DNA of 64,000 nucleotides, taken from NCBI GenBank assembly GCA_035263625.1, contig DATFRB010000033.1, positions 53,539 to 117,538 on the forward strand, read 5' to 3'. The notes beneath the pieces are model-generated. The model was given only the letters and a program-made list of their open reading frames with translations, did no database searches and had not been told where the DNA came from. Below, in pieces: positions 16,907 through 61,125 of this stretch; positions within the stretch are counted from its first letter, which is position 1; every line of letters begins with the position of its first letter. The translations under genes were made by a program, and so were the position numbers. This stretch comes from Terracidiphilus sp. (lineage in GTDB: Bacteria; Acidobacteriota; Terriglobia; Terriglobales; Acidobacteriaceae).

Positions 16907-16933
16907 GAAGGCTCCTCGCGAGGAGGAGCCTTC
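16907..16933 (-). terminator. Stem-loop downstream of the MoaD-like gene
   Basis: 11-bp perfect stem gaaggctcctc-gcgag-gaggagccttc. Confidence 0.55.
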
Positions 16934-16958: not shown

Positions 16959-17240
16959 TCAGCAGCATCCGCCGGCGATGGACGGAATCACGAGCACCTC
17001 GTCGCCTTCCTTGAAGCTGTACTTCTCGTTGCCGAGGAAGCGGATGTCTTCTTCATTGACATAGAAGTTGATGAAGCGGCGGATCTGGCCGTCTTCGCCG
17101 CGAAGGTGCGGCCGCAGTGCTGGGAAGCGCCCCTCAATGTCATTGACAAGCTCGGGCAGGTTCGCGGCGCCGCTCGATATCTCGCGCACGTTGTTGGTGT
17201 GTTTCTGAAATGCGTTGGGCAACAGGACTCGTACTGCCAT
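16959..17240 (-). CDS. MoaD/ThiS/CysO-type ubiquitin-like sulfur carrier ending IAGGCC
   Basis: 93 aa with RRFINFYVNEEDIRF, GDEVLVIPSIAGG and then Cys-Cys-stop (ATC GCC GGC GGA TGC TGC TGA). Confidence 0.9.
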   Translation of the reverse strand: MAVRVLLPNAFQKHTNNVREISSGAANLPELVNDIEGRFPALRPHLRGEDGQIRRFINFYVNEEDIRFLGNEKYSFKEGDEVLVIPSIAGGCC

Positions 17241-17245
17241 TTTCC

Positions 17246-18505
17246 TTATTTCTCCGCCAGGGCAAATTCCTGGTTGGTTGTCTGTTCGTCTACGAAGGAT
17301 TCGAAGTCGGTGAGCCGAGGACGGATGGTCCGGCCCTGGTCGTACGCGCCCTGAAGCACATCGGTAGTCTTCAGGCCGTTTCCGGTGATGCACGTAACGG
17401 TCAGATCATCGGGCTTGATGCGTCCGTGCGCGTAGAGACGGGCGGTTACCGCGGTGGTGACGCCGCCGGCCGTCTCGGTAAAGATGCCCTCGGTTTCAGC
17501 AAGTTCCTGGATGGCCGATACGATTTCTACGTCCGACACATCCTCGGCCCAGCCGCCCGTGTCGCGGATGGCGCGCGCTGCGTAGATTCCATCGGCCGGG
17601 TTGCCGATTGCCAGAGAACGCGCGATGGTATGCGGGCGCTGCGGCTCGATGATGTCTGTGCCGCCCTTGACGGCTTTTGCGATGGGCGAGCAGCCGGTGG
17701 CCTGCGCGCCGAAGAAGCGCACCGGCTTCTCTTCGACCAGGCCGAGCTCGATGAGTTCGTTGAATGCCTTGCGGATCTTGGTGATGAGCGAGCCGCCGGC
17801 CATGGGCACGACCACGTTGTCGGGCAGGCGCCAGCCTAGCTGTTCGGCGATCTCAAAGCCGACAGTCTTCGACCCCTCTGCGTAATATGGCCGCAGGTTC
17901 ACGTTCACGAAGCCCCAGTTGTAGCGGTCGGCGATCTGCGAGCTCAGGCGGTTGCAGTGATCGTAGTTCCCTTCTACGCGCACCAGCGTTGCGCCGTAGA
18001 CCTGCGTGTTGAGAATCTTTGCGGGCTCGAGATCCGCGGGGACGAGGATGAACGTCTTCAATCCCAGGCGCGCGGCCTGCGCGGCCACAGCGTTGGCCAG
18101 GTTGCCGGTGGACGAGCAGCCCACGGTGTCGAATCCGAATGCCTGCGCATTCGCCAGCGCAACGGCCACCACGCGATCCTTGAAGCTCAGCGTGGGCATG
18201 CATACCGCGTCATTCTTGAGGTAGAGATTGCGCGCGCCGATGTGCGCTCCGAGCCGCGGAGCAGCAACCAGCGGCGTGAGCCCGGCGGGCGTGCCCAGCT
18301 CGTGGCCTTCCGGGATCGGCAGCATCGCCTTGTAGCGGCCGATGTTCAGCGGGCCTTCGGAGATCTTCTGGCGGGTGAAGCGGGTGCGAGCATAGTCGAG
18401 GTCGTACTTCACCTCGAGAGGGGAAAAACATTCATCGCAGATCGATAGCGGCTGAACTCCGTAGCTCTTGCCGCATTCCCGACATCGCAATTCGTAAGCA
18501 GACAT
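17246..18505 (-). CDS. Threonine-synthase-family PLP enzyme (possible O-phosphohomoserine sulfhydrylase)
   Basis: N-terminal CxxC..CxxC, PLP-lysine motif SFKDR, SSTGNLA, NVNLRPYY.EGSKT and TGNGLKT. Confidence 0.88.
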   Translation of the reverse strand: MSAYELRCRECGKSYGVQPLSICDECFSPLEVKYDLDYARTRFTRQKISEGPLNIGRYKAMLPIPEGHELGTPAGLTPLVAAPRLGAHIGARNLYLKNDAVCMPTLSFKDRVVAVALANAQAFGFDTVGCSSTGNLANAVAAQAARLGLKTFILVPADLEPAKILNTQVYGATLVRVEGNYDHCNRLSSQIADRYNWGFVNVNLRPYYAEGSKTVGFEIAEQLGWRLPDNVVVPMAGGSLITKIRKAFNELIELGLVEEKPVRFFGAQATGCSPIAKAVKGGTDIIEPQRPHTIARSLAIGNPADGIYAARAIRDTGGWAEDVSDVEIVSAIQELAETEGIFTETAGGVTTAVTARLYAHGRIKPDDLTVTCITGNGLKTTDVLQGAYDQGRTIRPRLTDFESFVDEQTTNQEFALAEK

Positions 18506-18633
18506 CAGCGGTCCCTCGCAGTATGCGAGCGACTGCAGGTATGCGGGCGCGTGACCGGCTCAATGAAGAGCGAACGTATGTTGACTCGAAACCGCTTGCG
18601 AAGCCGCTTCAGAGTACTAAAGCGACCCCCGAA

Positions 18634-18745
18634 TCTCATGTTCCTGGGATTTTCACCCAGCGAGAGTTGACACCATACTCCTGGATTGCCCAGGCAGGTT
18701 GTCGTGGCGTCACAGGGCCCGTCCCTCAGCCACTCTGCATGAAAC
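18634..18745 (-). ncRNA. SAM-I (S-box) riboswitch
   Basis: Minus strand TTCATGCAGAG-TGGCT-GAGGGACGGGCCCTGTGACGCCACGACAACC...GGTGTCAACTC...GAACATGAG matches the S-box landmarks (AUC/AUGCAGAG, GAGGGA..GGCCC kink-turn/pseudoknot, CAACC, GGUG, AUGAG). It lies about 130 nt upstream of the PLP enzyme. Confidence 0.85.
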
Positions 18746-27321: not shown

Positions 27322-27399
<78 letters not shown>

Positions 27400-35889: not shown

Positions 35890-36216
35890 ATGGAGACTGC
35901 GGTGCGCACCACGATTACCTTGTCTCCGGCGGCTCACGAGATTGTGGAACGATTCAAGAATGCGAACGGTACTTCAACGAGCGCTGCAATTGATGAGATT
36001 ATTCAGCGGAGCGAGCCGAAGCCCTCGCGGCTGAGGAAGGTCAATGGTCTGCTTGTGCTGAGCGATCCTCCCTCCAATCCTGATGACCTCTTCCACATCA
36101 CGGTAGAGGAATTTAAGGACCTGGAAGACCGGATGGACAGGGAAGCCATGGAACGGGTCCTTAAAGGCAATCGAGGAACGGTTCGCGGCGCGCGGAAGAA
36201 CGAAGCAGGGCGATGA
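35890..36216 (+). CDS. Putative antitoxin (ribbon-helix-helix-like, VapB type)
   Basis: RTTITL beta strand followed by helices and RLRKVNGLLV. The stop overlaps the PIN gene start (ATGA). An alternative start lies at 35824. Confidence 0.7.
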   Translation: METAVRTTITLSPAAHEIVERFKNANGTSTSAAIDEIIQRSEPKPSRLRKVNGLLVLSDPPSNPDDLFHITVEEFKDLEDRMDREAMERVLKGNRGTVRGARKNEAGR

Positions 36217-36644
36217 CATTTCTCCTGGACGTGAACTTACTCTTCGTGCTGCATCAGCCACGGGAAGCGTATTTCCCGATCGTGCATCGATGGTTTTCCC
36301 GCATAAGACGCGATCGGTTCGCAACGTGTCCGATCACACAGGCGGGGATGGTGCGCACGCTGATGCAAGGATTTCCCAACGGCGACCGGTTTCAAATGGC
36401 TGAAGCCCGGGAAGCACTCCGAATCTTCGTTGAACTGCCCGGACACGAGTTCTGGCCGGATGAGCCTTCGTATCTCGATGCCGCGTTGCCCTTGTTCAAG
36501 CGGATGCAGGGATATCGCCAGATCACAGATGCTTATCTGCTGGGGCTCGCTAGGCATCGCGGCGGAAAACTCGCCACTCTGGACAAAGCGATTCCGAGCC
36601 TCGCCGGCCCTGAACTGGCTGATGCAGTAGAGCTGATCGCCTAG
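36213..36644 (+). CDS. vapC: PIN-domain toxin (VapC family)
   Basis: Motifs FLLDVNLL, ATCPITQAG, QITDAYLLGLA and LATLD typical of mycobacterial-type PIN toxins. Confidence 0.88.
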   Translation: MTFLLDVNLLFVLHQPREAYFPIVHRWFSRIRRDRFATCPITQAGMVRTLMQGFPNGDRFQMAEAREALRIFVELPGHEFWPDEPSYLDAALPLFKRMQGYRQITDAYLLGLARHRGGKLATLDKAIPSLAGPELADAVELIA

Positions 36645-36654
36645 CTTCAGATCC

Positions 36655-39600
36655 TTAGACGGGTTGGACGGAGCCTTTACCTACTAACTCTTCCACGCGC
36701 TCGATCCAGCCTTTGTCGGCTGCCACAGACATCTGCTCGGGCTCGAGGATTACGGCGTATGCGCCCTTCTTTTCCAAGTGCAGCATGACTTTGCCAGGGC
36801 CGGGGGCTGCTTCTGCGGCGGAGCGGAGGCCGGTGAACATTTCTTCGGTGGCTCGCTCCAAGTTGATGCGGATGCGCACGCCGGAGGGGAGCTTGACCTG
36901 CACGTCGTCGAGGGCCTGGATGGAGTTGATGGAAAGCTTGGGAGCGGAGTCTTCTTCACCCATCAACGTGCCGCGGATGAGGACGGGCGCCTGGATCTTG
37001 AGCTGCTCCGCGAGGCGCTCGTATTCGCGCGCGAAGCAGATCACTTCCATTTTGCCGGTAGCGTCTTCAATGAAGCCCTGCGCGTAGAGCTTGCCTTCGC
37101 GCTTGCTTTTGCGCGCGGCGCCGGTGCCGTGGAGCATGCCCGCGACCTGGAGCTCGTCGGCGGGATCGGACTGGCGGCCCCAGGTGCGCTCGGGGGGCTT
37201 GCGCTCGAGGGCTTCGGAGATGGGGATAACGCCCGGAAGGTTGCGGAGCTTTTCGGCGTACTTGTCGAGCGGGTGGCCGGAGACGAAGAAGCCGAGGACT
37301 TCTTTCTCGTTGGCGAGTCGCTCGCTCTCCTCCCAATCTGCCGCGTGAGGCAGATCGTCGCTTCGGCGGCCGGGCGCGGGGGTTTCGTCGAAGAGGCCGA
37401 AGAGGCCGGTCTGGCCCTGGGCGGCGTCTTTCTGCGACTTCTGAGCCCGCTCCATCGCCTTGTCGACGGCAGCGAAGAGCTGGCCGCGTTTGCCGAGAGA
37501 GTCGAGCGCGCCGGCCTTGATCAACGACTCGATGACGCGCTTGTTCATCAGGCGCAGATCAACTTTCTCGCAGAACTGCCAGAAGCTGGCAAAGCGACCG
37601 CCGAGCTCGGTGCGCGCAGCGATGATGGATTCGATGGCGTTGCCGCCGACATTCTTTACTGCGGCGAGGCCGAAGCGGATGGCTTTGCCCTCCGGCGTGT
37701 CGTACGGCGTAAACTGCGCGCCGGAGATCTGCACGTCGGGAGGGAGGACCTGTATGTTCAGCTCCTTGCATTCGCCGATGTATTTCACGACATTTTCGGG
37801 CTTTGAGGTTTCAGCCGTGAGCAGGGCGGCCATGAACTCGACGGGATAGTGAGTCTTGAGATAGGCGGTCTGGTAGGCTACCCAGGCATAAGCGGCGGAG
37901 TGCGATTTATTGAAGCCGTAGCCGGAGAACTTCGCCATCTGCTCGAAGATCTCTTCGACGGGCGCCTTGGCGTAGCCCTGCGCCGCGGCGCCGCTGGTGA
38001 AGCGCTCGCGCTGCTTCGCCATGGCGGCGGGATCTTTCTTTCCCATGGCGCGGCGGAGCAGGTCGGCCTCGCCGAGCGAGTAACTGGCGAGCACGTTGGC
38101 GATGCGCATGACCTGTTCCTGGTAGACGATGACGCCGAGCGAGTCCCTGAGGATCTCCTCGAGCGGCGGGAGCAGGTATTCCACTTTTTTGCGCTTCCAC
38201 TTGCGCTCGATGAAGTCGTCGATCATGTCCATGGGGCCGGGGCGGAAGAGCGCGTTCAACTGCGTCAGTTCTTCGACGGTGTCGGGCTTGTAGCGGCGGA
38301 GAATGTCGCGCATGCCGCCGGACTCAAACTGGAAGACGCCCGAAGTGAGCGCGGTGTGAAACACCCGCTTGAATGTCTCCGGATCATCCATGGGAATCAT
38401 TTCGATGTCGAGCTTTTCGCCGCGGGTCTGTTCGATGAGCTTGACCGCGTTGTCGATGACGGTGAGCGTGGCCAGGCCGAGGAAGTCCATCTTCAGCAGG
38501 CCCATTTTTTCGACAGCCTTCATGTCGTAAGCGGTGACGATTTCGTCGTTCTTGGTGCGGTTGAGGGGAACGAGCTCCGTGAGCGGGCGGGGCGCGATGA
38601 CCACAGCGGATGCGTGGACGCCGGCGCCGCGGGAGAGGCCTTCAAGTTTTTTCGCGGTGTCGATCAGTTCCCGGATCTGCTTGTCGCTCTCATACACCTT
38701 GGCCAGCTCGGGCGACTCTTCGAGCGCCTTGTCCAGAGTCATGCCCACGGTGGCGGGGACGAGCTTGGCGATGCGGGCCACGTCGGTGAAGGGCATGTCC
38801 ATGGCGCGGCCGCAGTCCTTGATGGAGGCCTTGGCGGCCATGGTGTTGAAGGTGATGATCTGGGCGACCTGCTCGCGGCCGTACTTGCGGGTGACGTAGT
38901 CGATGACTTCGCCGCGGCGGTTCATGCAGAAGTCGACGTCGACGTCGGGCATGGTGACGCGTTCGGGATTGAGGAAGCGCTCGAAGAGGAGCACGTTCTG
39001 CATGGGATCGATGTTGGTGATCTCCATTGCGTAGGCGACGAGCGACCCGGTGGCGGAACCGCGGCCGGGGCCGACTGGGATGCCGTGATCGCGAGCGTAC
39101 TTGATGAAGTCCCAGACGATGAGGAAGTAGCCGGAGTACTTCATCTGCTTGATGATGCCTATCTCGTATGAGAGGCGCGATTCGTATTCCTCGGGCGTGG
39201 ACCGGCGCACGCCGCGCAACTCGAGCTGACGGACGGATGTGTCGAGGCGCTTCTTGAGGCCCTCGCGGCAGACTTCTTCGAAGTAGCTGTCGATGGTGTG
39301 TCCTGCGGGGACGGCGAACTCGGGGAAGGGATTGTCGACGGGGTTGAGCTTGAAGTAGCAGCGCTCGGCGATCTCCATGGTGCGGGAGAGGAGGGCGGGC
39401 GAGTCGGGGAAGAGGCGCGCCATTTCGTCGGCGCTCTTGACGTAGAACTGATCGGAGTCGAACTTGAAGCGGTCAGCGTCGTGGATCTTGGCACCGGTCT
39501 GGACGCAGAGCATGACGTCGTGCGCGTGGGAGTCTTCGCCGCAGAGGTAGTGGGAGTCGTTGGTGGCGATGAGCGGGATTTCGAGCTCGCGCTCGAGGCG

Positions 39601-40176
39601 GAAGAGGTCGTTCTGGATCTTGCGCTCTTCGGCGAGGCCCTGGTCCTGGATTTCGAGGAAGAAGTTGTTGCGGCCGAAGATGTCCTGGTACTCGAGGGCG
39701 ACGGCTTTGGCGCGGTCGTAGTTGCCGGCGACGAGTTCTTCGCAGAGCTCGCCGGAGAGGCAGCCGGAGGTTCCGATCAAGCCCTTGGCGTGTTCGGCGA
39801 GAAAGCGCTTGGAGACGCGGGGCTTGCGGTAGAAGCCGTGGAGAGAGGCCTCGGAAGTGATGCGGATCAGGTTGCGGTAGCCTTCTTCGTTTTCGGCGAG
39901 GACGAGGAGATGGTTGTACTCGTTCTTAGTGTCGACCGGGGTGCCGCAGTGGTCCTCGGATTTGGAGACGTAGAGCTCGCAGCCGAGGATGGGTCGGATG
40001 CCTTTTTCCTTGGCGGCGTTGAAGAAGTGGACGGCGCCGTAGATGTTGCCGTGGTCGGTCATGGCGACGGACTTCTGGCCGAGGGAGGCGACGCGGTCGA
40101 CGAGTTTGTGGAGGTCGCATGCGCCGTCGAGGAGGGAGTATTCGGTGTGGAGATGGAGGTGGGTGAATTCGGGCAT
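36655..40176 (-). CDS. dnaE: DNA polymerase III alpha subunit
   Basis: PHP domain HLHLHTEYSLLDG, GPGRGSATGS, PDVDVDF, GLLKMDFLGL, FNKSHSAAY and a C-terminal OB fold. No intein seen. Confidence 0.98.
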   Translation of the reverse strand: MPEFTHLHLHTEYSLLDGACDLHKLVDRVASLGQKSVAMTDHGNIYGAVHFFNAAKEKGIRPILGCELYVSKSEDHCGTPVDTKNEYNHLLVLAENEEGYRNLIRITSEASLHGFYRKPRVSKRFLAEHAKGLIGTSGCLSGELCEELVAGNYDRAKAVALEYQDIFGRNNFFLEIQDQGLAEERKIQNDLFRLERELEIPLIATNDSHYLCGEDSHAHDVMLCVQTGAKIHDADRFKFDSDQFYVKSADEMARLFPDSPALLSRTMEIAERCYFKLNPVDNPFPEFAVPAGHTIDSYFEEVCREGLKKRLDTSVRQLELRGVRRSTPEEYESRLSYEIGIIKQMKYSGYFLIVWDFIKYARDHGIPVGPGRGSATGSLVAYAMEITNIDPMQNVLLFERFLNPERVTMPDVDVDFCMNRRGEVIDYVTRKYGREQVAQIITFNTMAAKASIKDCGRAMDMPFTDVARIAKLVPATVGMTLDKALEESPELAKVYESDKQIRELIDTAKKLEGLSRGAGVHASAVVIAPRPLTELVPLNRTKNDEIVTAYDMKAVEKMGLLKMDFLGLATLTVIDNAVKLIEQTRGEKLDIEMIPMDDPETFKRVFHTALTSGVFQFESGGMRDILRRYKPDTVEELTQLNALFRPGPMDMIDDFIERKWKRKKVEYLLPPLEEILRDSLGVIVYQEQVMRIANVLASYSLGEADLLRRAMGKKDPAAMAKQRERFTSGAAAQGYAKAPVEEIFEQMAKFSGYGFNKSHSAAYAWVAYQTAYLKTHYPVEFMAALLTAETSKPENVVKYIGECKELNIQVLPPDVQISGAQFTPYDTPEGKAIRFGLAAVKNVGGNAIESIIAARTELGGRFASFWQFCEKVDLRLMNKRVIESLIKAGALDSLGKRGQLFAAVDKAMERAQKSQKDAAQGQTGLFGLFDETPAPGRRSDDLPHAADWEESERLANEKEVLGFFVSGHPLDKYAEKLRNLPGVIPISEALERKPPERTWGRQSDPADELQVAGMLHGTGAARKSKREGKLYAQGFIEDATGKMEVICFAREYERLAEQLKIQAPVLIRGTLMGEEDSAPKLSINSIQALDDVQVKLPSGVRIRINLERATEEMFTGLRSAAEAAPGPGKVMLHLEKKGAYAVILEPEQMSVAADKGWIERVEELVGKGSVQPV

Positions 40177-49521: not shown

Positions 49522-51216
49522 TCATTTCAAAGACTCCAGAGTGCGCTCGGAGTTGGAATTCGCCAAGTTGAGCTGCTGCGCGCGGTCGAGAGCAGCCTGC
49601 ACATTGGGCATGATGTTCTCGCGGCCCACGTGATCGAGAAAACGCGGATTCGCGAGGAGCCTGCTCGGCTGATTCATGGCTCCGCAGAGTATGAGCGCGC
49701 GGCCAGAAGAGTTGAGGCGCCTCGCGAACGATTCGATTGCATGGATTCCGGTCTGGTCGATTGCGGTCATGTTGCGCAGCCGCAGGATTACGACCTGGTT
49801 GAATGCTTCCAGGTTGGCGGTTGCATCGACAAGTTTTTCGGTAGTGCCAAATAGAAACGGACCGTGGATGCGCAGCAACGTGACGTAGGGAGGAATGATG
49901 CGCCCCTGCAGCGTGTGCGGCAGGCCGTCGCGAATGTAGTCGTCGTCCACCGGGCTCACGGTGGTCGTTTCGGCAATGCGGTAGATATAAAGAAGGGCGG
50001 CGAGCGTGAGGCCTACTCCGACAGCGATGGTGAGGTCTGCAAAGACAGTCAAGCCGAACGTTACCAGCCACACGGAGATCGCCGCGAAATCGAGTTGAAA
50101 CACGGCGCCGATCTCATGCCACTCGCCCATGTTGTAGGCCACCATGAACAATACGCCGGCGAGGGTCGCCAATGGGATATAGCTTGCAAGCGGCGCCGCG
50201 GCAAGGAGGATAACGAGCAGCGTTATCGCGTGGATCATGCCGGCAATGGGAGAGCGAGCTCCGGCGCGAATGTTAGTAGCTGTGCGGGCGATTGCACCAG
50301 TGGCCGGAATTCCACCGAACACGGGAGAAGCGAGGTTTGCGATGCCCTGGGCGACGAGTTCGACGTTTGAGTTGTGACGGTCGCCTGTCATGCCGTCTGC
50401 AACCACAGCGGACAGCATGCTTTCAAGCGCGCCCAGCATCGCGACTGTGAATGCAGAAGGCAGTAGCGGAAGGATGTGCTCGGAGTGAAAGCTGGGGATT
50501 GCAAACGGCGGCAAACCACGCGGGATTCCTCCGAACTTCGTACCGATGGTTTCGACCGGCAGGTGGAGGACTGCGCACGCAACCGTGCAGACCAATACGG
50601 CGACGATTGACGCAGGAACGCGGCGAGTGAACCGCGGAAGAACGATGAGAATCGCAAGTGTCGAGAGCCCGATGCCCAAGGCAGCCCAGTTGACCGTAGT
50701 CGCATGCGCTGCCAGCAGTTTCATGCGAGGCAGGAACTCGCTGGGCACAGGTCCGGTGCGCAGGCCGAAGAAGTCTTTTATCTGTGTAGAAGCGATCAGG
50801 ACGGCAATGCCGTTGGTGAACCCGATTACTACGCCGCGCGGGATGAACCGAACTGCGGCGCCGAGACCGGTCAGGCCCATAACGATCAGAATGACTCCGG
50901 CCATGAGCGTGACCAATGCCAGGCCGCTCATTCCGAAGTGCGCCACGATTCCGGCAACGATGACAACGAATGCGCCGGTGGGGCCGCCGATCTGAGCACG
51001 CGAGCCACCCAGCGCGGAGATGAGGAATCCCGCAATGACGGCCGTGTACAGGCCCGCCTGCGGAGTTACGCCGGACGCAATGCCGAATGCCATTGCGAGG
51101 GGAAGCGCGACGAGACCAACTGTGACACCAGCTAATAGATCGTGAAGAAACGACTGCGCGTTATAGGTCCGAAGAGCGAGCACGGACTTGGGCAGACTTG
51201 GATTGCTTGCAGACAT
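49522..51216 (-). CDS. SulP family anion permease with STAS domain
   Basis: Motifs DLLAGVTVGLVALPLAMAF, QIGGPTGAF, ESMLSAVVAD, TGAIARTATN and STAS GPFLFG. ATG at 51216. Confidence 0.93.
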   Translation of the reverse strand: MSASNPSLPKSVLALRTYNAQSFLHDLLAGVTVGLVALPLAMAFGIASGVTPQAGLYTAVIAGFLISALGGSRAQIGGPTGAFVVIVAGIVAHFGMSGLALVTLMAGVILIVMGLTGLGAAVRFIPRGVVIGFTNGIAVLIASTQIKDFFGLRTGPVPSEFLPRMKLLAAHATTVNWAALGIGLSTLAILIVLPRFTRRVPASIVAVLVCTVACAVLHLPVETIGTKFGGIPRGLPPFAIPSFHSEHILPLLPSAFTVAMLGALESMLSAVVADGMTGDRHNSNVELVAQGIANLASPVFGGIPATGAIARTATNIRAGARSPIAGMIHAITLLVILLAAAPLASYIPLATLAGVLFMVAYNMGEWHEIGAVFQLDFAAISVWLVTFGLTVFADLTIAVGVGLTLAALLYIYRIAETTTVSPVDDDYIRDGLPHTLQGRIIPPYVTLLRIHGPFLFGTTEKLVDATANLEAFNQVVILRLRNMTAIDQTGIHAIESFARRLNSSGRALILCGAMNQPSRLLANPRFLDHVGRENIMPNVQAALDRAQQLNLANSNSERTLESLK

Positions 51217-51284
51217 GAAAGCTGCTTCTATTTTACCCGCGAAGACATTCGCATCCGGATAGGGCGGGCAGCCAGAGCGTGACG

Positions 51285-51641
51285 CTACTCGCCGGTGTAG
51301 ATGCAGCCGGTGGTGCAGGTTTCGCGGACTACGATTTTGCTGAGAGCGGGAAGCGCGGGCTGGAGGCGGGTCCAGATCCAGCGGGCGAGGTTTTCGCTGG
51401 TGGGGTTTTCGAGGCCTTCGATGTCGTTGAGACAGCGGTGATCGAGCTGGTCCTCGATGGGAGTAAAGGCCTCTTTGATCTCGGCGAAGTCCATGACCCA
51501 GCCGAGCTTCGGATCGACAGGGCCCTCGGCGTAGATCTCGATGCGAAAGCTGTGGCCGTGCATTCGGTGGCACTTGTGGCCTTCAGGGACGTTCGGCAGC
51601 CAGTGCGCCGCTTCGATCGAGAATTTCTTGAAGATTTCCAT
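51285..51641 (-). CDS. queD: 6-carboxytetrahydropterin synthase
   Basis: Motifs [33 protein letters not shown] and NPTSENLA. Confidence 0.95.
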
Positions 51642-51650
51642 AAACAATCC

Positions 51651-52289
51651 CTACGGAATACCAACAATCTTATGCGTTTGCAGGCTGAGACGCCACGCTG
51701 GGTGGTCCATGCAATAGCGGACGGCTGCGCCGGTGTTGGCTTCGCGGTCGGGGCCGTCCATCGGCTGAAGGAAGAAGTGGCGGAAGGCGAATTTTTCGCA
51801 GTCGGCGGGGTCGATTCCCTGCTGCGGGAAGACGAGTTTGAGCTCGTCGCCGGAGCGCTGGACGAGATTTGCGCCCGCTTTGGGGCTGACGCAGATCCAG
51901 TCGAGAGAAGTCGGAGCGGGAATCGTGCCGTTGGTTTCGACCGCCACTTCAAAGCCGCGCGCGTGCAGGGCGTCGATCAGTTCGGCGTCGAGCTGAAGCA
52001 GAGGCTCGCCGCCGGTGCAGACGACCAAGGGTTTTCCACGGGCAGTGCGAGCGGGCCAGGCATTCGCGATGGCATCGGCCAGTTCGCGGGCAGTGGCGAA
52101 TTTGCCGCCGCCTGGGCCGTCAGTGCCGAAGAAATCGGTGTCGCAGAATTTGCAGACGGCGGAGGCGCGGCCGTCTTCGCGGCCGGTCCAGAGGTTGCAG
52201 CCGGAGAAGCGGCAGAAGACGGCGGCGCGGCCGGATTGCGCGCCTTCACCCTGGAGGGTGTAAAAGATCTCCTTGACTGTGTACGTCAT
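51651..52289 (-). CDS. queE: 7-carboxy-7-deazaguanine synthase (radical SAM, CX14CX2C type)
   Basis: Motifs [45 protein letters not shown] and [11 protein letters not shown] at 52289 overlaps the queC stop. Confidence 0.95.
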
Positions 52290-53008
52290 AGTACGGCCTG
52301 TGCGGGCGCGGCGGGATAATGCAGCGGATCGCTGATGCCGTTTTCCGCGAAGCCCTTGCGGCGCAGGATGCAGGAGTCGCATTCGCCGCATGGGGTGCCA
52401 TCTGGAGCGGGGTCGTAGCAGCTGCTGGTGAGGCTGTAGTCGACGCCGAGGTCGAGGCCGGCGCGAATGATCTGAGCCTTGGTCATCGCGACAAGCGGGG
52501 CGTGAATGACGAGGTGCTGGCGGCCTTCGACACCGGCTTTGGTGGCGAGGTTGGCCATCTGCTCGAAGGCGCGGACGAACTCGGGGCGGCAGTCGGGATA
52601 GCCGGAGTAGTCGAGCGCGTTGACGCCGATGAAGATGTCGCTCGAGCCGAGGACTTCCGCCCATGCCAGGGCGAAGGACAGGAAGATGGTATTGCGGGCG
52701 GGCACGTAGGTGATGGGGATACCGTGGCTCATCTCGGCGGCGCCACGGCCCTTGGGAACGGCGATGTCGGAGGTGAGGGCCGAGCCTCCGAATGCGCGTA
52801 GGTCGATGGCAGCGACGCGATGATCCGCGGCTCCTCCGGCTTCGGCAACGCGGCGCGCGGCGAGCAGTTCGAAGCGATGGCGCTGGCCGTAGTCGAAGGA
52901 GAGCGCGTGCGCGGCGTAGCCTTCGCTGCGCGCGATGGCGAGCACGGTGGCCGAGTCGAGACCGCCGCTGAGGAGCACTACTGCCGGCTTTTTTGCTCCC
53001 TGGTCCAT
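52286..53008 (-). CDS. queC: 7-cyano-7-deazaguanine synthase
   Basis: Motifs [28 protein letters not shown] and SCY..CGECDSC. Confidence 0.97.
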
Positions 53009-56729: not shown

Positions 56730-57758
56730 ATGGCGAAATACAAACTGGAGTACATCTGGCTGGACGGCAAAACGCCCATCCCTGAACTGCGCGGCAAAAC
56801 GACGATCAAGTCGTTCGACGCGACGCCCACCCTTGCCGATCTGCCCCTGTGGGGATTTGACGGCAGCTCGACGATGCAGGCCGAAGGCAAGAGCAGCGAT
56901 TGCATTCTGAAGCCAGTGGCGCTGTATCCCGATGGCAGCCGCAAGAGCGCGTACCTGGTGCTTTGCGAAGTAAACCACCCGGACGGAACGCCCCACGCGA
57001 GCAACATGCGCGCGACAGCCGAGGACGATCCGGACCTGTGGTTCGGATTCGAGCAGGAGTACTTCCTTTACAAGGACGGGCGGCCGCTGGGATTTCCGAC
57101 GGAGGGCTTCCCTGCCCCGCAGGGTCCGTACTACTGCGGCGTGGGATACAAGTACATGGGGTCAATTGCGCGGACGATCGTTGACGAGCATCTCGACCTG
57201 TGCCTGCATGCGGGGATCAACCACGAGGGCATCAACGCGGAAGTGGCGAAGGGGCAGTGGGAGTTCCAGATCTTCGGGAAGGGATCGCACAAGGCTGCCG
57301 ACGATTTGTGGATCGCGCGCTACCTGATGATGCGGCTCTGCGAGAAGTACGAAGTGGACGTGATGTGGCACTGCAAGCCGATCAGGGGCGATTGGAACGG
57401 GTCGGGGATGCATACGAACTTCTCGACAAAGTGCCTGCGCGAGGTCGGCGGCAAGGAGTACTTCGAGTCGCTGATGGAGGCGTTCGAGGACAACATTGCG
57501 GCGCACATCGAGGTGTACGGGCCCGATAACCACCTGCGGCTGACGGGACACCATGAGACGCAGTCGATCGACAAGTTTTCGTATGGGTTGTCGGACAGGG
57601 GCGCTTCGATCCGGCTGCCGGTGAACTTTATCCGCAACGGATACCGCGGGTACCTCGAAGACCGGCGGCCGAATTCCGAGGCGGATCCGTACCAGATCGT
57701 TTCGCGGATTCTGAAGACGGTGAGCAACGTTTCGCTGCCGGAGCTGGAGTTGGCATAG
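56730..57758 (+). CDS. glnII: Glutamine synthetase type II
   Basis: 342 aa with KLEYIWLDG, WGFDGSST, WFGFEQEY, GINAEV.KGQWEFQI, DWNGSGMHTN, RLTGHHET, RGASIR and YLEDRRP. Confidence 0.95.
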   Translation: MAKYKLEYIWLDGKTPIPELRGKTTIKSFDATPTLADLPLWGFDGSSTMQAEGKSSDCILKPVALYPDGSRKSAYLVLCEVNHPDGTPHASNMRATAEDDPDLWFGFEQEYFLYKDGRPLGFPTEGFPAPQGPYYCGVGYKYMGSIARTIVDEHLDLCLHAGINHEGINAEVAKGQWEFQIFGKGSHKAADDLWIARYLMMRLCEKYEVDVMWHCKPIRGDWNGSGMHTNFSTKCLREVGGKEYFESLMEAFEDNIAAHIEVYGPDNHLRLTGHHETQSIDKFSYGLSDRGASIRLPVNFIRNGYRGYLEDRRPNSEADPYQIVSRILKTVSNVSLPELELA

Positions 57759-57865
57759 GGGCTTGATCGCGCCGGCGCGCGCGTACGGGCTGGTCTAACT
57801 GCCTCAAGTCTGCGAGGCACGCATGGAAGCACAGCGCAGTAGAACATGGACGCGGCAAATACTGG

Positions 57866-57920
57866 CCGGGCATGAGCCGGAACGAGGGTGGTGCGCACCT
57901 TCGTTCCGGCTCATGCCCGG
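57866..57920. other. 25-bp inverted repeat between glnII and glnA
   Basis: ccgggcatgagccggaacgagggtg-gtgcg-caccttcgttccggctcatgcccgg, with a single G:T pair. Confidence 0.9.
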
Positions 57921-58033
57921 TGTTGCTTTTCACGGAGTTTCACATTTCGCCGTAGACCGCGGTTCGGCAGCAGCCCGATAAGCCGACACCTCAACAGCGA
58001 ATCGCAGCAGGCACTGAAAGGAGAAGGACCTCG

Positions 58034-59452
58034 ATGGCACGCACGCCTGATGACGTAAGAAAGATTGCGAAGGATGCCGGCATAAAGATCGTCGACCTGA
58101 GGTTCATCGATCTGCCGGGGATGTGGCAGCATTTTTCGATTCCGGTGGAAGACCTGGATGACTCGCTGTTCAGCGACGGAATTGGATTCGATGGATCGAG
58201 CATTCGCGGGTTCCAGCACATCCACGAGAGCGACATGCTGCTGATTGCGGACGCGAACACGGCGGTGGTGGATCCGGTGCTGCAGGTGCCGACGCTGAAC
58301 CTGATCTGCAACGTGTTCGACCCGCTGAGCCGCGAAGCGTATACGCGAGATCCGCGATACGTGGCGCAGAAGGCCGAGGCGTATCTGAAGACGACCGGCA
58401 TTGCGGATATCAGCTACTGGGGACCGGAGGCGGAGTTCTACCTCTTCGACCACGTGCGCTACGACCAGACGGCGAACAGCGGCTACTACCACGTGGACTC
58501 GCGCGAGGGCGTGTGGAACACGGGCGAGGAAGAGTCGAACCTTGGCTACAAGCTGCGGCACAAGGAGGGGTACTTCCCGGTGCCGCCGTCGGACCAGCTG
58601 CAGGACATCCGGTCGGAGATCATCCTGGCGCTGAAGGATATGGGCGTGAAGGTCGAGGTGCACCATCACGAAGTGGGAACCGCGGGGCAGTGCGAGATCG
58701 ACATGCGGTTCAACACGCTGACGACGATGGCCGACAACCTGCTCACCTACAAGTACGTCATCCGCATGATCGCGAAGAAGCATGGGATGTCGGCGACGTT
58801 CATGCCGAAGCCGCTGTTTGGCGACAACGGTTCGGGGATGCACGTGCACCAGAGCTTGTGGAAGGGCGACACGAACGTCTTCTACGACAAGGACGGATAT
58901 GCGCTGCTGAGCCAGACGGCGAAGTACTACATTGGCGGGCTGCTGAAGCATGCGCCAGCGCTGCTGGCGATTGCGGCTCCGACGACGAACTCCTACAGGC
59001 GACTGGTGCCGGGTTACGAGGCGCCGGTGAACCTGGCGTATTCGAAGCGGAACAGGTCTGCGGCTTGCAGGATCCCGGTGTATTCGACGAGCCCGAAGGC
59101 CAAGCGCATCGAGTTCAGGTGCCCCGACCCCTCGACGAATCCATATCTGTGCTTCCCGGCGCTGCTGATGGCAGGGCTGGACGGGATCAGGAACAAGATC
59201 GATCCCGGCGAGCCGCTGGACAAGGACCTCTACGAACTCGGGCCGGAGGAGGCGTCGAAGATCAAGAGCACGCCGGGCTCGCTCGGCGAGGTGCTGAATG
59301 CGCTTGAACAGGATCATGCGTTCCTGCTGGAAGGCGGGGTGTTCACGCCGGATTTGATCGAGACGTGGATCAGCTACAAGAGGGAGCGCGAACTGGCGCA
59401 GGTGAATCTGCGGCCGGTGCCGTACGAGTTCTTCCTTTATTACGATCTGTGA
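58034..59452 (+). CDS. glnA: Glutamine synthetase type I-beta
   Basis: Motifs [43 protein letters not shown] and the adenylylation-loop Tyr in DKDLYEL. Confidence 0.97.
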
Positions 59453-59467
59453 GGGCATCGGGGATGG

Positions 59468-59501
59468 AAACGGCCGGCGCGGTGAATGCCGGCCGTTTTC
59501 A
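59468..59501 (+). terminator. Intrinsic terminator after glnA
   Basis: aaacggccggc (59468-59478) pairs with gccggccgttt (59488-59498), followed by tcattt. Confidence 0.7.
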
Positions 59502-59697
59502 TTTGGCGCTGGTTGAAGTATGGCAGCTGCGCCTTCCGGCAGGGCGTTTAGAATAGGGGAAACGCCGATGTTTCCCGGATTCGCACGTCCGAGTCGAGAC
59601 AGGATCGTGCTGCTCTGACCTCAACGTCTGCCTGGCCCCGCCGCAGCGAATCGCTGTGTGGCCGCGAATCAACATACTTCGCCCCAAAAGGAGATCC

Positions 59698-61125
59698 ATG
59701 TCGACCGATTACCGGAACTTTCTGGCCCTTTCGTATGAGGAGCTGGAGGAGAAGAACCTTCAAGCCAAGGCAGAACGCCTGAGCCGCATGCCCGCGGACA
59801 AGGTCCGCGAAGAGCGGTTGAAGTACCTGACCGATGAGAAGCGGATCAAGGCCGTGACGGTGCTGTTTTCGGATCTCGAGGGGCGGCTGCACCTGCTCGA
59901 CTACGACAAGAAGTTTCTGCTCGGCTCATACGAGAATCTGACGTTCGACGGCTCGTCGATTCGCGGGTTTACGGCACAGAAGGAGAGCGACCTTCGGCTG
60001 GGCATCGACTGGAGCGCGTTCTACTGGGTGCCGGCCGACGTGTTCGGCAACGGCAAGGTGCTGGTGTTCGGCGACGTGATCGACAAGGATGGGACCCAGT
60101 ATGCGGGCGACATCCGCGGCGTGCTGAAGAACTACGCCGAGAAGCTGTATGCGGAGAAGAAGCTCACGCTGAACGCTGCGACGGAGATCGAAGGCTTTCT
60201 TTTCGCGGGCCGTGACACGGAACGGAAGTTCCACGAGACGGGCAAGTTCGAATTTATCAACACGGGCGGCTACTACCACGTTCTGCCGCTCGATCCGCTG
60301 CGGCAGTTTATCGACACTTCGGCGGAAGTGCAGCGCGCAATGGGCTTCCAGAACGAGAAGGACCACCCGGAAGTCGCGCCGAGCCAGTTCGAAATTAATT
60401 TCGGGTACAGCGAAGTGGTTGCCGCTGCTGACCAGATCCAGCTTTACAAGCTGCTGTGCCGGCAGATTGCGAACAACAACGGCTACACGGCGTGCTTTAT
60501 GCCGAAGCCGGTGGTGGGCGTGAACGGAAGCGGAATGCACTCGAATGTTTCGGTGAGCGAGGGCAAGAAGAATCTGTTCTGGGACGAGAAGGGCGAGGAG
60601 AAGCTCTCGAAGTTCGGATGGGATTTCCTGGATCGCATTCTGAATAAGGCGCTGGACCTTTGCCTTATATTCAACTCGAGCGTGAACGCGTACCGGCGGC
60701 TCGATCCGCACTTTGAAGCGCCTAACCAGATACGCGCGTCGGCGACGGACCGCGGGGCGATGATCCGCGTGCCGATCGGCAATTCGCGCTCGATGCGCAC
60801 CGAAGTTCGCGCTGTGGCGCCGGATGCGAATCCGTATCTCTCGATGTACGGGATCTTCAAGACGGGCATCGATGGGAACATCTCGAAGGAGAACCTGCGC
60901 GGAGGCGGGAAGTTTCTGCCGGACAACATCTACACGGCGATTGATGACTTCAAGACGTCGAAGTGGATTGCCGAGATATTGGGAGCGGACGTGCAGACGC
61001 GGTATGCGGAGCTGAAGCAGGCCGCGGCAGACCGTTGCCCGCGCGTGCTGGGGACGTTTGTGAAGGCTTCCGAGGTGCAGTTCCATCACGAGGTGTATAA
61101 CCAGTCGCTTTGGAATTTGTTCTAG
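59698..61125 (+). CDS. Third glutamine synthetase family protein (GSI-alpha-like, N-terminal extension)
   Basis: Motifs [46 protein letters not shown] and EVR. No DLYEL adenylylation loop. Confidence 0.88.
   Translation: MSTDYRNFLALSYEELEEKNLQAKAERLSRMPADKVREERLKYLTDEKRIKAVTVLFSDLEGRLHLLDYDKKFLLGSYENLTFDGSSIRGFTAQKESDLRLGIDWSAFYWVPADVFGNGKVLVFGDVIDKDGTQYAGDIRGVLKNYAEKLYAEKKLTLNAATEIEGFLFAGRDTERKFHETGKFEFINTGGYYHVLPLDPLRQFIDTSAEVQRAMGFQNEKDHPEVAPSQFEINFGYSEVVAAADQIQLYKLLCRQIANNNGYTACFMPKPVVGVNGSGMHSNVSVSEGKKNLFWDEKGEEKLSKFGWDFLDRILNKALDLCLIFNSSVNAYRRLDPHFEAPNQIRASATDRGAMIRVPIGNSRSMRTEVRAVAPDANPYLSMYGIFKTGIDGNISKENLRGGGKFLPDNIYTAIDDFKTSKWIAEILGADVQTRYAELKQAAADRCPRVLGTFVKASEVQFHHEVYNQSLWNLF

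Follow-up and report, generated by a model that had tools for sequence, protein, structure and literature searches.

Organisation of the locus

The DNA analysed here, referred to as the window, is a stretch of 64,000 nucleotides (nt) from a contig of Terracidiphilus sp. (DATFRB010000033.1, positions 53,539 to 117,538; assembly GCA_035263625.1), an uncultured member of the Acidobacteriaceae from soil. Its reverse strand carries an S-adenosylmethionine (SAM)-I riboswitch, a gene for a pyridoxal 5'-phosphate (PLP) enzyme homologous to threonine synthase (ThrC), and a gene for a MoaD/CysO-like sulfur carrier; the two genes are called metM-like and metO-like, after the Streptomyces genes with which they are compared below. 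A preliminary description, made from the letters of the sequence, had recognised these three elements and had suggested that together they make homocysteine from O-phosphohomoserine. All three were found within the limits given there (Rfam, Pfam and NCBIfam matches), and the 5 nt reported to separate the two genes proved exact, the TAA of the enzyme gene lying at 17248-17246 and the ATG of the carrier gene at 17240. The features of the locus are listed below.

18633..18745, reverse strand: SAM-I riboswitch aptamer (S-box, RF00162), from the Rfam match
18506..18632, reverse strand: leader or expression platform of 127 nt, read from the sequence
17246..18505, reverse strand: metM-like gene, ThrC-family PLP enzyme of 419 amino acids (aa), from the open reading frame (ORF) and Pfam/NCBIfam matches
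18428..18484, reverse strand: N-terminal CxxC...CxxC zinc-ribbon-like segment of the enzyme (C8, C11, C23, C26), read from the sequence
18179..18181, reverse strand: codon of the predicted PLP Schiff-base lysine K109 (SFKDR), from the alignment with solved ThrCs
16959..17240, reverse strand: metO-like gene, ThiS/MoaD/CysO-type sulfur carrier of 93 aa, from the ORF and the Pfam ThiS match
16907..16933, reverse strand: GC-rich 11-bp hairpin (GAAGGCUCCUC/GAGGAGCCUUC), 26 nt past the metO stop codon

The match to RF00162 runs from 18745 to 18633 and scores 80.5 bits (gathering score 44.4; E 2.3e-17). The aptamer is full length, with model positions 1-108 of 108 covered and no truncation, and it is the sole riboswitch found by the Rfam scan of the 64-kb window. 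Riboswitches of the SAM-I class usually lower expression when SAM is bound. The enzyme matches Pfam PALP (1.5e-68) and the thrC equivalog of NCBIfam, TIGR00260 (278.9 bits, cutoff 167), and is thus a ThrC-homologous PLP protein of fold type II in which the Schiff-base lysine is intact. The ATG of the carrier gene is preceded by AAGGA. A longer reading frame for the carrier, with a GTG start (16959..17393), was rejected, because it overlaps the end of the enzyme gene and because 76 homologues begin at a position that matches the ATG at 17240; on three public contigs with an identical enzyme, the gene callers predict the same two genes. The pair is flanked by genes for DUF3303, DoxX and DinB proteins, and with such neighbours and a SAM riboswitch in its leader the enzyme gene has neither the context nor the regulation of the threonine pathway. 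Public archive runs matching the sequence are of soil DNA only, with no RNA among them. The hairpin past the carrier gene, which has a folding energy of -27.6 kcal/mol (z -2.1) in its 73-nt context and a weak U-tract, and which the consensus scan did not report, is a possible end of the transcript.

Separation of the enzyme from canonical threonine synthases

A degenerate, GC-biased DNA pattern for the motif RPYYAEGSKT, characteristic of the clade described below, retrieved 120 loci, among them those of about 20 Streptomyces species. The locus of S. albulus, whose genes are the characterised ones, was absent from this set and is represented here by Streptomyces species that share its architecture. 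Rfam was run on seven Streptomyces loci, and in each of them a SAM-I riboswitch immediately precedes the enzyme gene and a metO-like gene follows it; in the complete Streptomyces loci the downstream gene encodes a carrier of 91-92 aa with the C-terminus AVAGG or AVAGGC. The window enzyme is 52-53% identical to the ThrC-like proteins of about 20 Streptomyces, 35-37% identical to four solved bacterial ThrCs (1uim, 2zsj, 6cgq, 2d1f), and 33% identical to a canonical ThrC from Acidobacteriota.

Clade motifs were derived from a multiple alignment of 117 sequences. The window enzyme contains PTLSFKDRVV, STGNLAN, VNVNLRPYYAEGSKT, PMAGGS and ETAGGVT, and the motifs shared by it and all riboswitch-linked homologues are missing from canonical ThrC. 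The corresponding segments are as follows.

PT(L/H)SFKDRVV in MetM-type proteins, PTGSFKDRGM in canonical ThrC
STGNLA(N/G) in MetM-type proteins, STGNT(S/A)A in canonical ThrC
VNVN(L/V)RPYYAEGSKT in MetM-type proteins, VNS-VNPxRxEGQKT in canonical ThrC
P(M/I)A(G/S)GS in MetM-type proteins, PVGNAGN in canonical ThrC
IGNPADG in MetM-type proteins, IGNPASW in canonical ThrC
ETAGGVT in MetM-type proteins, EPASAAS in canonical ThrC

Conversely, the active-site motifs of canonical ThrC (PTGSFKDRGM, STGNT(S/A), N-S-x-N-P-x-R and PVGNAGN) do not occur in the window protein. The clade-specific changes map to T88, N154-R160 and the GNAGN loop in the numbering of Thermus thermophilus ThrC, which we take to be the parts of that enzyme contacting the phosphate of the substrate and the phosphate of PLP; these roles of the phosphate-site residues are said to have been worked out by Omi in 2003 and Murakawa in 2011.

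A phylogeny against ThrC and the MetM lineage, a check suggested beforehand, gave the same separation. In a neighbour-joining tree built from 330 shared columns with 100 bootstraps, the window enzyme, the other Acidobacteriota-type proteins and all actinobacterial proteins, including those of the Streptomyces species that represent S. albulus, form one clade, and the five solved ThrCs included in the analysis fall outside it in 100 of 100 bootstraps.

The match to the thrC equivalog has to be read against this background. A Streptomyces MetM-type protein (L187:1954-3231) scores 275.5 bits with TIGR00260, nearly as far above the cutoff of 167 as the window enzyme, and the match therefore cannot tell MetM and ThrC apart. 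Because TIGR00260 accepts MetM-type proteins, the close homologues bear the name threonine synthase in all public annotations. No MetM-specific model was matched in NCBIfam release 20.0; PRK08197 was considered as a hidden MetM model and rejected, as the proteins of the window, Streptomyces and Micromonospora all score below its cutoff. The zinc-ribbon-like segment was likewise rejected as a marker. All four of its cysteines are kept across the clade, and the solved short ThrCs, whose alignment begins at residue 54-55, lack it; however, the canonical ThrC encoded at a locus discussed below (L075) has a zinc ribbon as well, so the segment does not discriminate between MetM and ThrC.

Conservation of the operon across phyla

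The 80 closest genome loci come from Acidobacteriaceae, other Terriglobia and single metagenome-assembled genomes (MAGs) of Verrucomicrobiia, Binatus, Methylomirabilota and Aquilonibacter. In 76 of these Acidobacteriota-type loci the enzyme gene is followed directly by the carrier gene, and in most of the 76 the carrier start overlaps the enzyme stop or sits a few nucleotides away. Among loci sampled across phyla, Rfam placed the riboswitch upstream in 40 of 44: nine of 11 diverse loci from the closest 80, all 15 from Micromonosporaceae, Frankia, Geodermatophilaceae and their relatives, and 16 of 18 in a third set that included Solirubrobacterales, Thermoleophilaceae and a Dehalococcoidia MAG (upstream sequence is lacking at one of the two loci where it was not found). 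The riboswitch-linked loci span Acidobacteriota, Actinomycetota, Verrucomicrobiia, Binatota, Eremiobacterota and Dehalococcoidia, which indicates that SAM control of this ThrC paralogue is ancient and widespread.

The mode of control is less uniform. The Shine-Dalgarno sequence of the metM-like gene (GAGGGA, 18517-18512) forms part of the 3' arm of a hairpin, CUCGCA...UGCGAG, that is local to it in the minimum-free-energy fold, and a hairpin bearing the Shine-Dalgarno sequence was also found in close relatives. Forbidding P1 in constraint folding of the leaders of the window and six close relatives did not consistently change the accessibility of the Shine-Dalgarno sequence, and an alignment of 23 leaders was too divergent for modelling. 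A terminator scan of the window leader gave no intrinsic or consensus terminator. In sister lineages (L047:1724-1741 and L073:177-196) the riboswitch is followed by a terminator-like hairpin and a T run; neither is seen in the window or its closest relatives, so the expression platforms differ within the family.

The carrier and its C-terminal extensions

The 93-aa carrier matches Pfam ThiS (4e-10). Its best solved relatives are 4n6e_B (1.3e-16), which we take to be a carrier in complex with a thiosugar synthase, and CysO of Mycobacterium tuberculosis, 3dwg_C (1.3e-14). The protein ends in ...SIAGG-CC, i.e. the C-terminal Gly-Gly expected of a ThiS/MoaD-fold carrier (G90-G91) is followed by two cysteines (C92-C93), and the carrier would accordingly be a precursor that needs trimming to expose Gly-Gly. 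Such residues past Gly-Gly occur in 63 of the 75 Acidobacteriota-type carriers (L001-L080), the commonest length being two and the first residue usually A, S or C, whereas 43 of 58 actinobacterial carriers (L164-L283) stop exactly at Gly-Gly. The Cys-Cys tail recurs in close relatives of the window, and the Gly-Gly motif itself is strictly retained.

Longer tails were seen in six Acidobacteriaceae MAGs (L006:7253-7627, L007, L008, L009, L013 and L018), whose MetO proteins continue past Gly-Gly with 15-42 Cys-rich residues ending in a conserved CCSYCG(Q/R)EEC-x-CG. Pfam found nothing besides ThiS in these proteins.

At one locus of a Candidatus Acidiferrales MAG (L075:7247-8473), the carrier reading frame runs in frame past SIAGG-TPTATVS into a complete homoserine kinase, recognised by Pfam GHMP_kinases_N and C and by TIGR00191 thrB (230 bits, cutoff 168). 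A second MAG of Acidiferrales type (L320:310-1533), assembled independently, has the same stop-free fusion, 89% identical in the kinase part, which rules out an artefact of assembly. O-phosphohomoserine is the product of homoserine kinase, and the metO::thrB fusion thus independently points to this compound as the substrate of the putative pathway. The fusion also implies cleavage behind Gly-Gly, as in ubiquitin fusion proteins. In both MAGs the gene order is riboswitch, metM, metO::thrB, aspartokinase, canonical thrC with the ThrC motifs, and asd; with a canonical thrC and a metM-like gene in one cluster, the two are distinct, coexisting paralogues. This co-occurrence was shown for L075 and L320 only: a scan for canonical thrC in the same Acidobacteriaceae genomes, with the canonical ThrC of L075 as the query, returned other Terriglobia only.

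It is conceivable, although unlikely in our estimation, that the extensions (GG-Cys-Cys, the Cys-rich tails and homoserine kinase) are functional parts of the system and not disposable caps. The cysteines of the tail might then receive or relay persulfide sulfur, or might gate the activation of the carrier by redox or metal state; if so, the thiocarboxylate carrier would be activated by a variant mechanism so far undescribed for MetO, CysO and HcyS.

Proposed pathway

Every feature by which membership of the MetM/MetO system can be judged from sequence, namely the enzyme family, the clade, the adjacent carrier and the upstream SAM riboswitch, is present in the window. What was observed is the riboswitch, the two genes and the families to which they belong, the place of the enzyme in the clade, the conservation of the gene linkage and the alteration of the ThrC motifs, and from this we conclude that the locus is very probably a SAM-repressed metM-metO operon for homocysteine synthesis, in which the 419-aa enzyme is the predicted MetO-thiocarboxylate-dependent homocysteine synthase. 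The suggestion that such an operon would use O-phosphohomoserine is supported by the clade, the conserved architecture and the fusion of the carrier with homoserine kinase.

A mechanism may be proposed in which the substrates, the thiocarboxylate chemistry, the trimming of the tail and the OFF logic of the riboswitch follow, by analogy, the Streptomyces work and the chemistry of CysM/CysO. Plentiful SAM would bind the S-box aptamer and the expression of both genes would fall; when SAM is scarce, both proteins would be made. MetO would be a ubiquitin-like beta-grasp carrier synthesised as a precursor ending in Gly-Gly-Cys-Cys, its tail would be removed by a Mec/JAMM-type peptidase encoded elsewhere, and a MoeZ-type E1-like/rhodanese enzyme, also encoded elsewhere, would adenylate the terminal glycine and turn it into a thiocarboxylate. 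MetM, the threonine synthase paralogue with PLP on K109, would take O-phospho-L-homoserine and eliminate its phosphate, and the MetO thiocarboxylate, replacing water, would attack the gamma carbon of the PLP-bound intermediate. An acyl shift and hydrolysis would then release homocysteine and regenerate MetO, and methionine synthase would convert homocysteine to methionine.

Several observations weigh against this proposal. The link to the characterised S. albulus proteins is indirect, being drawn through orthologues in other Streptomyces species. One homologue, from a cyanobacterium and with 51.6% identity to MetM, is reported to have acted as a threonine synthase and a threonine deaminase in vitro and not to have raised methionine in vivo (PMC12172450); members of the clade may thus keep ThrC-type chemistry without a supply of thiocarboxylate. 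Neither the window nor the 10 kb around it was found to contain Mec, MoeZ, thrB or metE/metH, a scan of all fetched loci and the window gave no JAMM motif, and no linked Mec or MoeZ emerged when the ORFs of 160 loci were clustered up to a distance of 4.5 kb from the enzyme gene; a second thrC or any other met gene is also absent from the window and the 10 kb around it. In Micromonosporaceae, Frankia, Geodermatophilaceae and Jatrophihabitans (L084-L161), the riboswitch and the enzyme gene occur with no carrier gene within the locus, and these loci may be served by an unlinked carrier or by a different sulfur donor. Finally, neither the terminator scan nor the constraint folding pointed to one mode of control for the window leader.

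Alternative explanations

The threonine synthase activity of the cyanobacterial clade member in vitro, the TIGR00260 match above the cutoff and the name given to all close homologues in public annotations could mean that this enzyme is a true threonine synthase, the second of the cell, that the riboswitch does no more than balance O-phosphohomoserine between threonine and methionine, and that the small gene is an unrelated MoaD-like neighbour. Yet the riboswitch-linked Streptomyces orthologue reaches an equal score with TIGR00260, the whole clade has other motifs in place of the ThrC signatures, and the carrier gene is linked to the enzyme gene, often with translational coupling, in 76 of 80 loci; moreover, in L075 and L320 a canonical thrC shares the cluster with the metM-like gene and the carrier is fused to homoserine kinase. 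We therefore regard this explanation as very improbable, even with the precedent of plant threonine synthase, which is itself regulated by SAM.

Similarly improbable is a homocysteine synthase that acts on O-phosphohomoserine in this lineage with free sulfide or another small donor, MetO being dispensable or otherwise employed. Many members of the clade (Micromonosporaceae, Frankia, Blastococcus) do have the riboswitch and the enzyme gene and no adjacent carrier gene, and Mec or MoeZ is linked nowhere; but the actinobacterial enzymes could draw on carriers encoded elsewhere, CysO for example, and the Gly-Gly motif is strictly kept. In the Acidobacteriota-type loci, moreover, the carrier gene is nearly always present, in most cases with its start overlapping the enzyme stop or within a few nucleotides of it.

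That the pair is a cysteine-forming, CysM/CysO-like or other thio-metabolite system with O-phosphoserine or another activated compound as the acceptor is highly unlikely, since the kinship of the carrier with solved CysO proteins, the existence of ThrC paralogues that act on O-phosphoserine and a weak match to cysteate synthase TIGR03844 are opposed by the ThrC family of the partner enzyme (best cysteine synthase model 34.9 bits, cutoff 387; cysteate synthase 51, cutoff 325), by SAM control, which points to methionine, by homoserine kinase as the fusion partner of the carrier in related MAGs, and by the presence in the clade of Streptomyces genes assigned to homocysteine synthesis.

Relation to known systems

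The SAM-repressed metM-metO operon that we propose most closely resembles that of Streptomyces. In S. albulus, a SAM riboswitch lies upstream of metM and metO adjoins the enzyme gene (Hasebe et al. 2024, AEM 90:e01247-24, as cited in PMC12172450). The GapMind 2026 preprint describes a pathway made up of MetM, MetO, Mec and MoeZ, warns that annotations often mistake MetM for threonine synthase, and states that the Mec hydrolase is needed for the maturation of MetO and that MoeZ loads the sulfur. The Streptomyces route from O-phosphohomoserine, which the preliminary description had named, was given correctly there (Hasebe et al. 2024, via PMC12172450; GapMind 2026), and its extension to the present lineage is supported, as a lineage extension of a published route, covered by GapMind in generic form, and not as a new one. 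The window and Streptomyces share the SAM-I leader, the ThrC-homologous PLP enzyme with the clade motifs and 52-53% identity, and the adjacent Gly-Gly carrier. Some Streptomyces carriers also have one Cys past Gly-Gly, in keeping with the Mec maturation step of GapMind. The window operon, in contrast, belongs to another phylum, its carrier is only 30-34% identical to the Streptomyces one and has a Cys-Cys tail, and Acidobacteriota carriers are mostly precursors, while actinobacterial ones mostly end at Gly-Gly.

The cysteine pathway of M. tuberculosis, formed by CysM, CysO, Mec and MoeZ, is represented by the structures 3dwg and 3dwm, and CysO is a proven thiocarboxylate carrier. Common to this pathway and the window operon are the carrier subfamily (E 1.3e-14), a PLP enzyme whose substrate is, or in the window is predicted to be, an O-phospho amino acid, and presumably a need for an E1-like activator and a JAMM peptidase that are not encoded nearby. 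The window enzyme differs in belonging to the ThrC and not to the CysM family, in the predicted conversion of O-phosphohomoserine to homocysteine, and in its SAM control. In Wolinella succinogenes, homocysteine is reportedly formed by HcyS/HcyF/HcyD and MetY by way of a thiocarboxylated ubiquitin-like carrier whose C-terminal extension is removed by a metalloprotease, as described by Krishnamoorthy and Begley. The carrier with a C-terminal extension is the point of likeness; the Wolinella enzyme, however, is a fold type I O-acetylhomoserine sulfhydrylase acting on acyl-homoserine, whereas that of the window is a fold type II ThrC paralogue presumably acting on O-phosphohomoserine. With canonical ThrC, the window enzyme has in common the fold, the PLP lysine motif, the presumed substrate and the thrC equivalog match, and it is set apart by the altered phosphate-site and PLP-phosphate motifs, the separate clade, the SAM control and the link to a carrier.

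The pathway itself has already been published (2024) and is included in GapMind 2026, so that the window operon is a new lineage member. The MetM/MetO literature, in which the primary 2024 report is represented by the papers citing it, mentions homologues in Streptomyces and cyanobacteria, and no mention of Acidobacteriota was found there. The capped carriers and the carrier-kinase fusion are more unusual than the operon. With the lineage extension, the O-phosphohomoserine/thiocarboxylate route would no longer be a peculiarity of Streptomyces; a conserved operon under SAM control would provide it in the Acidobacteriota that abound in soil and in several further phyla. An annotation error of a systematic kind also comes to light: MetM-type proteins named threonine synthase distort the reconstruction of metabolism and the prediction of auxotrophies in soil bacteria that have not been cultured. 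The clade motif set and the carrier-homoserine kinase fusion provide simple sequence rules for separating MetM from ThrC.

Other features of the window

Outside the operon, a queC-queE-queD cluster for 7-cyano-7-deazaguanine synthesis, followed by a SulP/STAS sulfate transporter-family gene, occupies 49522-53008 on the reverse strand; these genes are about 30 kb from metM-metO and have no evident link to it. Three tandem genes of the glutamine synthetase family (Gln-synt_N and Gln-synt_C; 342, 472 and 475-489 aa) lie at 56730-61125 on the forward strand, and a single tRNA gene (Rfam tRNA, 75.1 bits) at 27325-27398 on the reverse strand. The gene for the alpha subunit of DNA polymerase III is found at 36655-40176 on the reverse strand, and next to it, in the region 36202-36633, the Pfam calls for the source contig place a small PIN-domain gene with a 108-aa partner, possibly a toxin-antitoxin pair.

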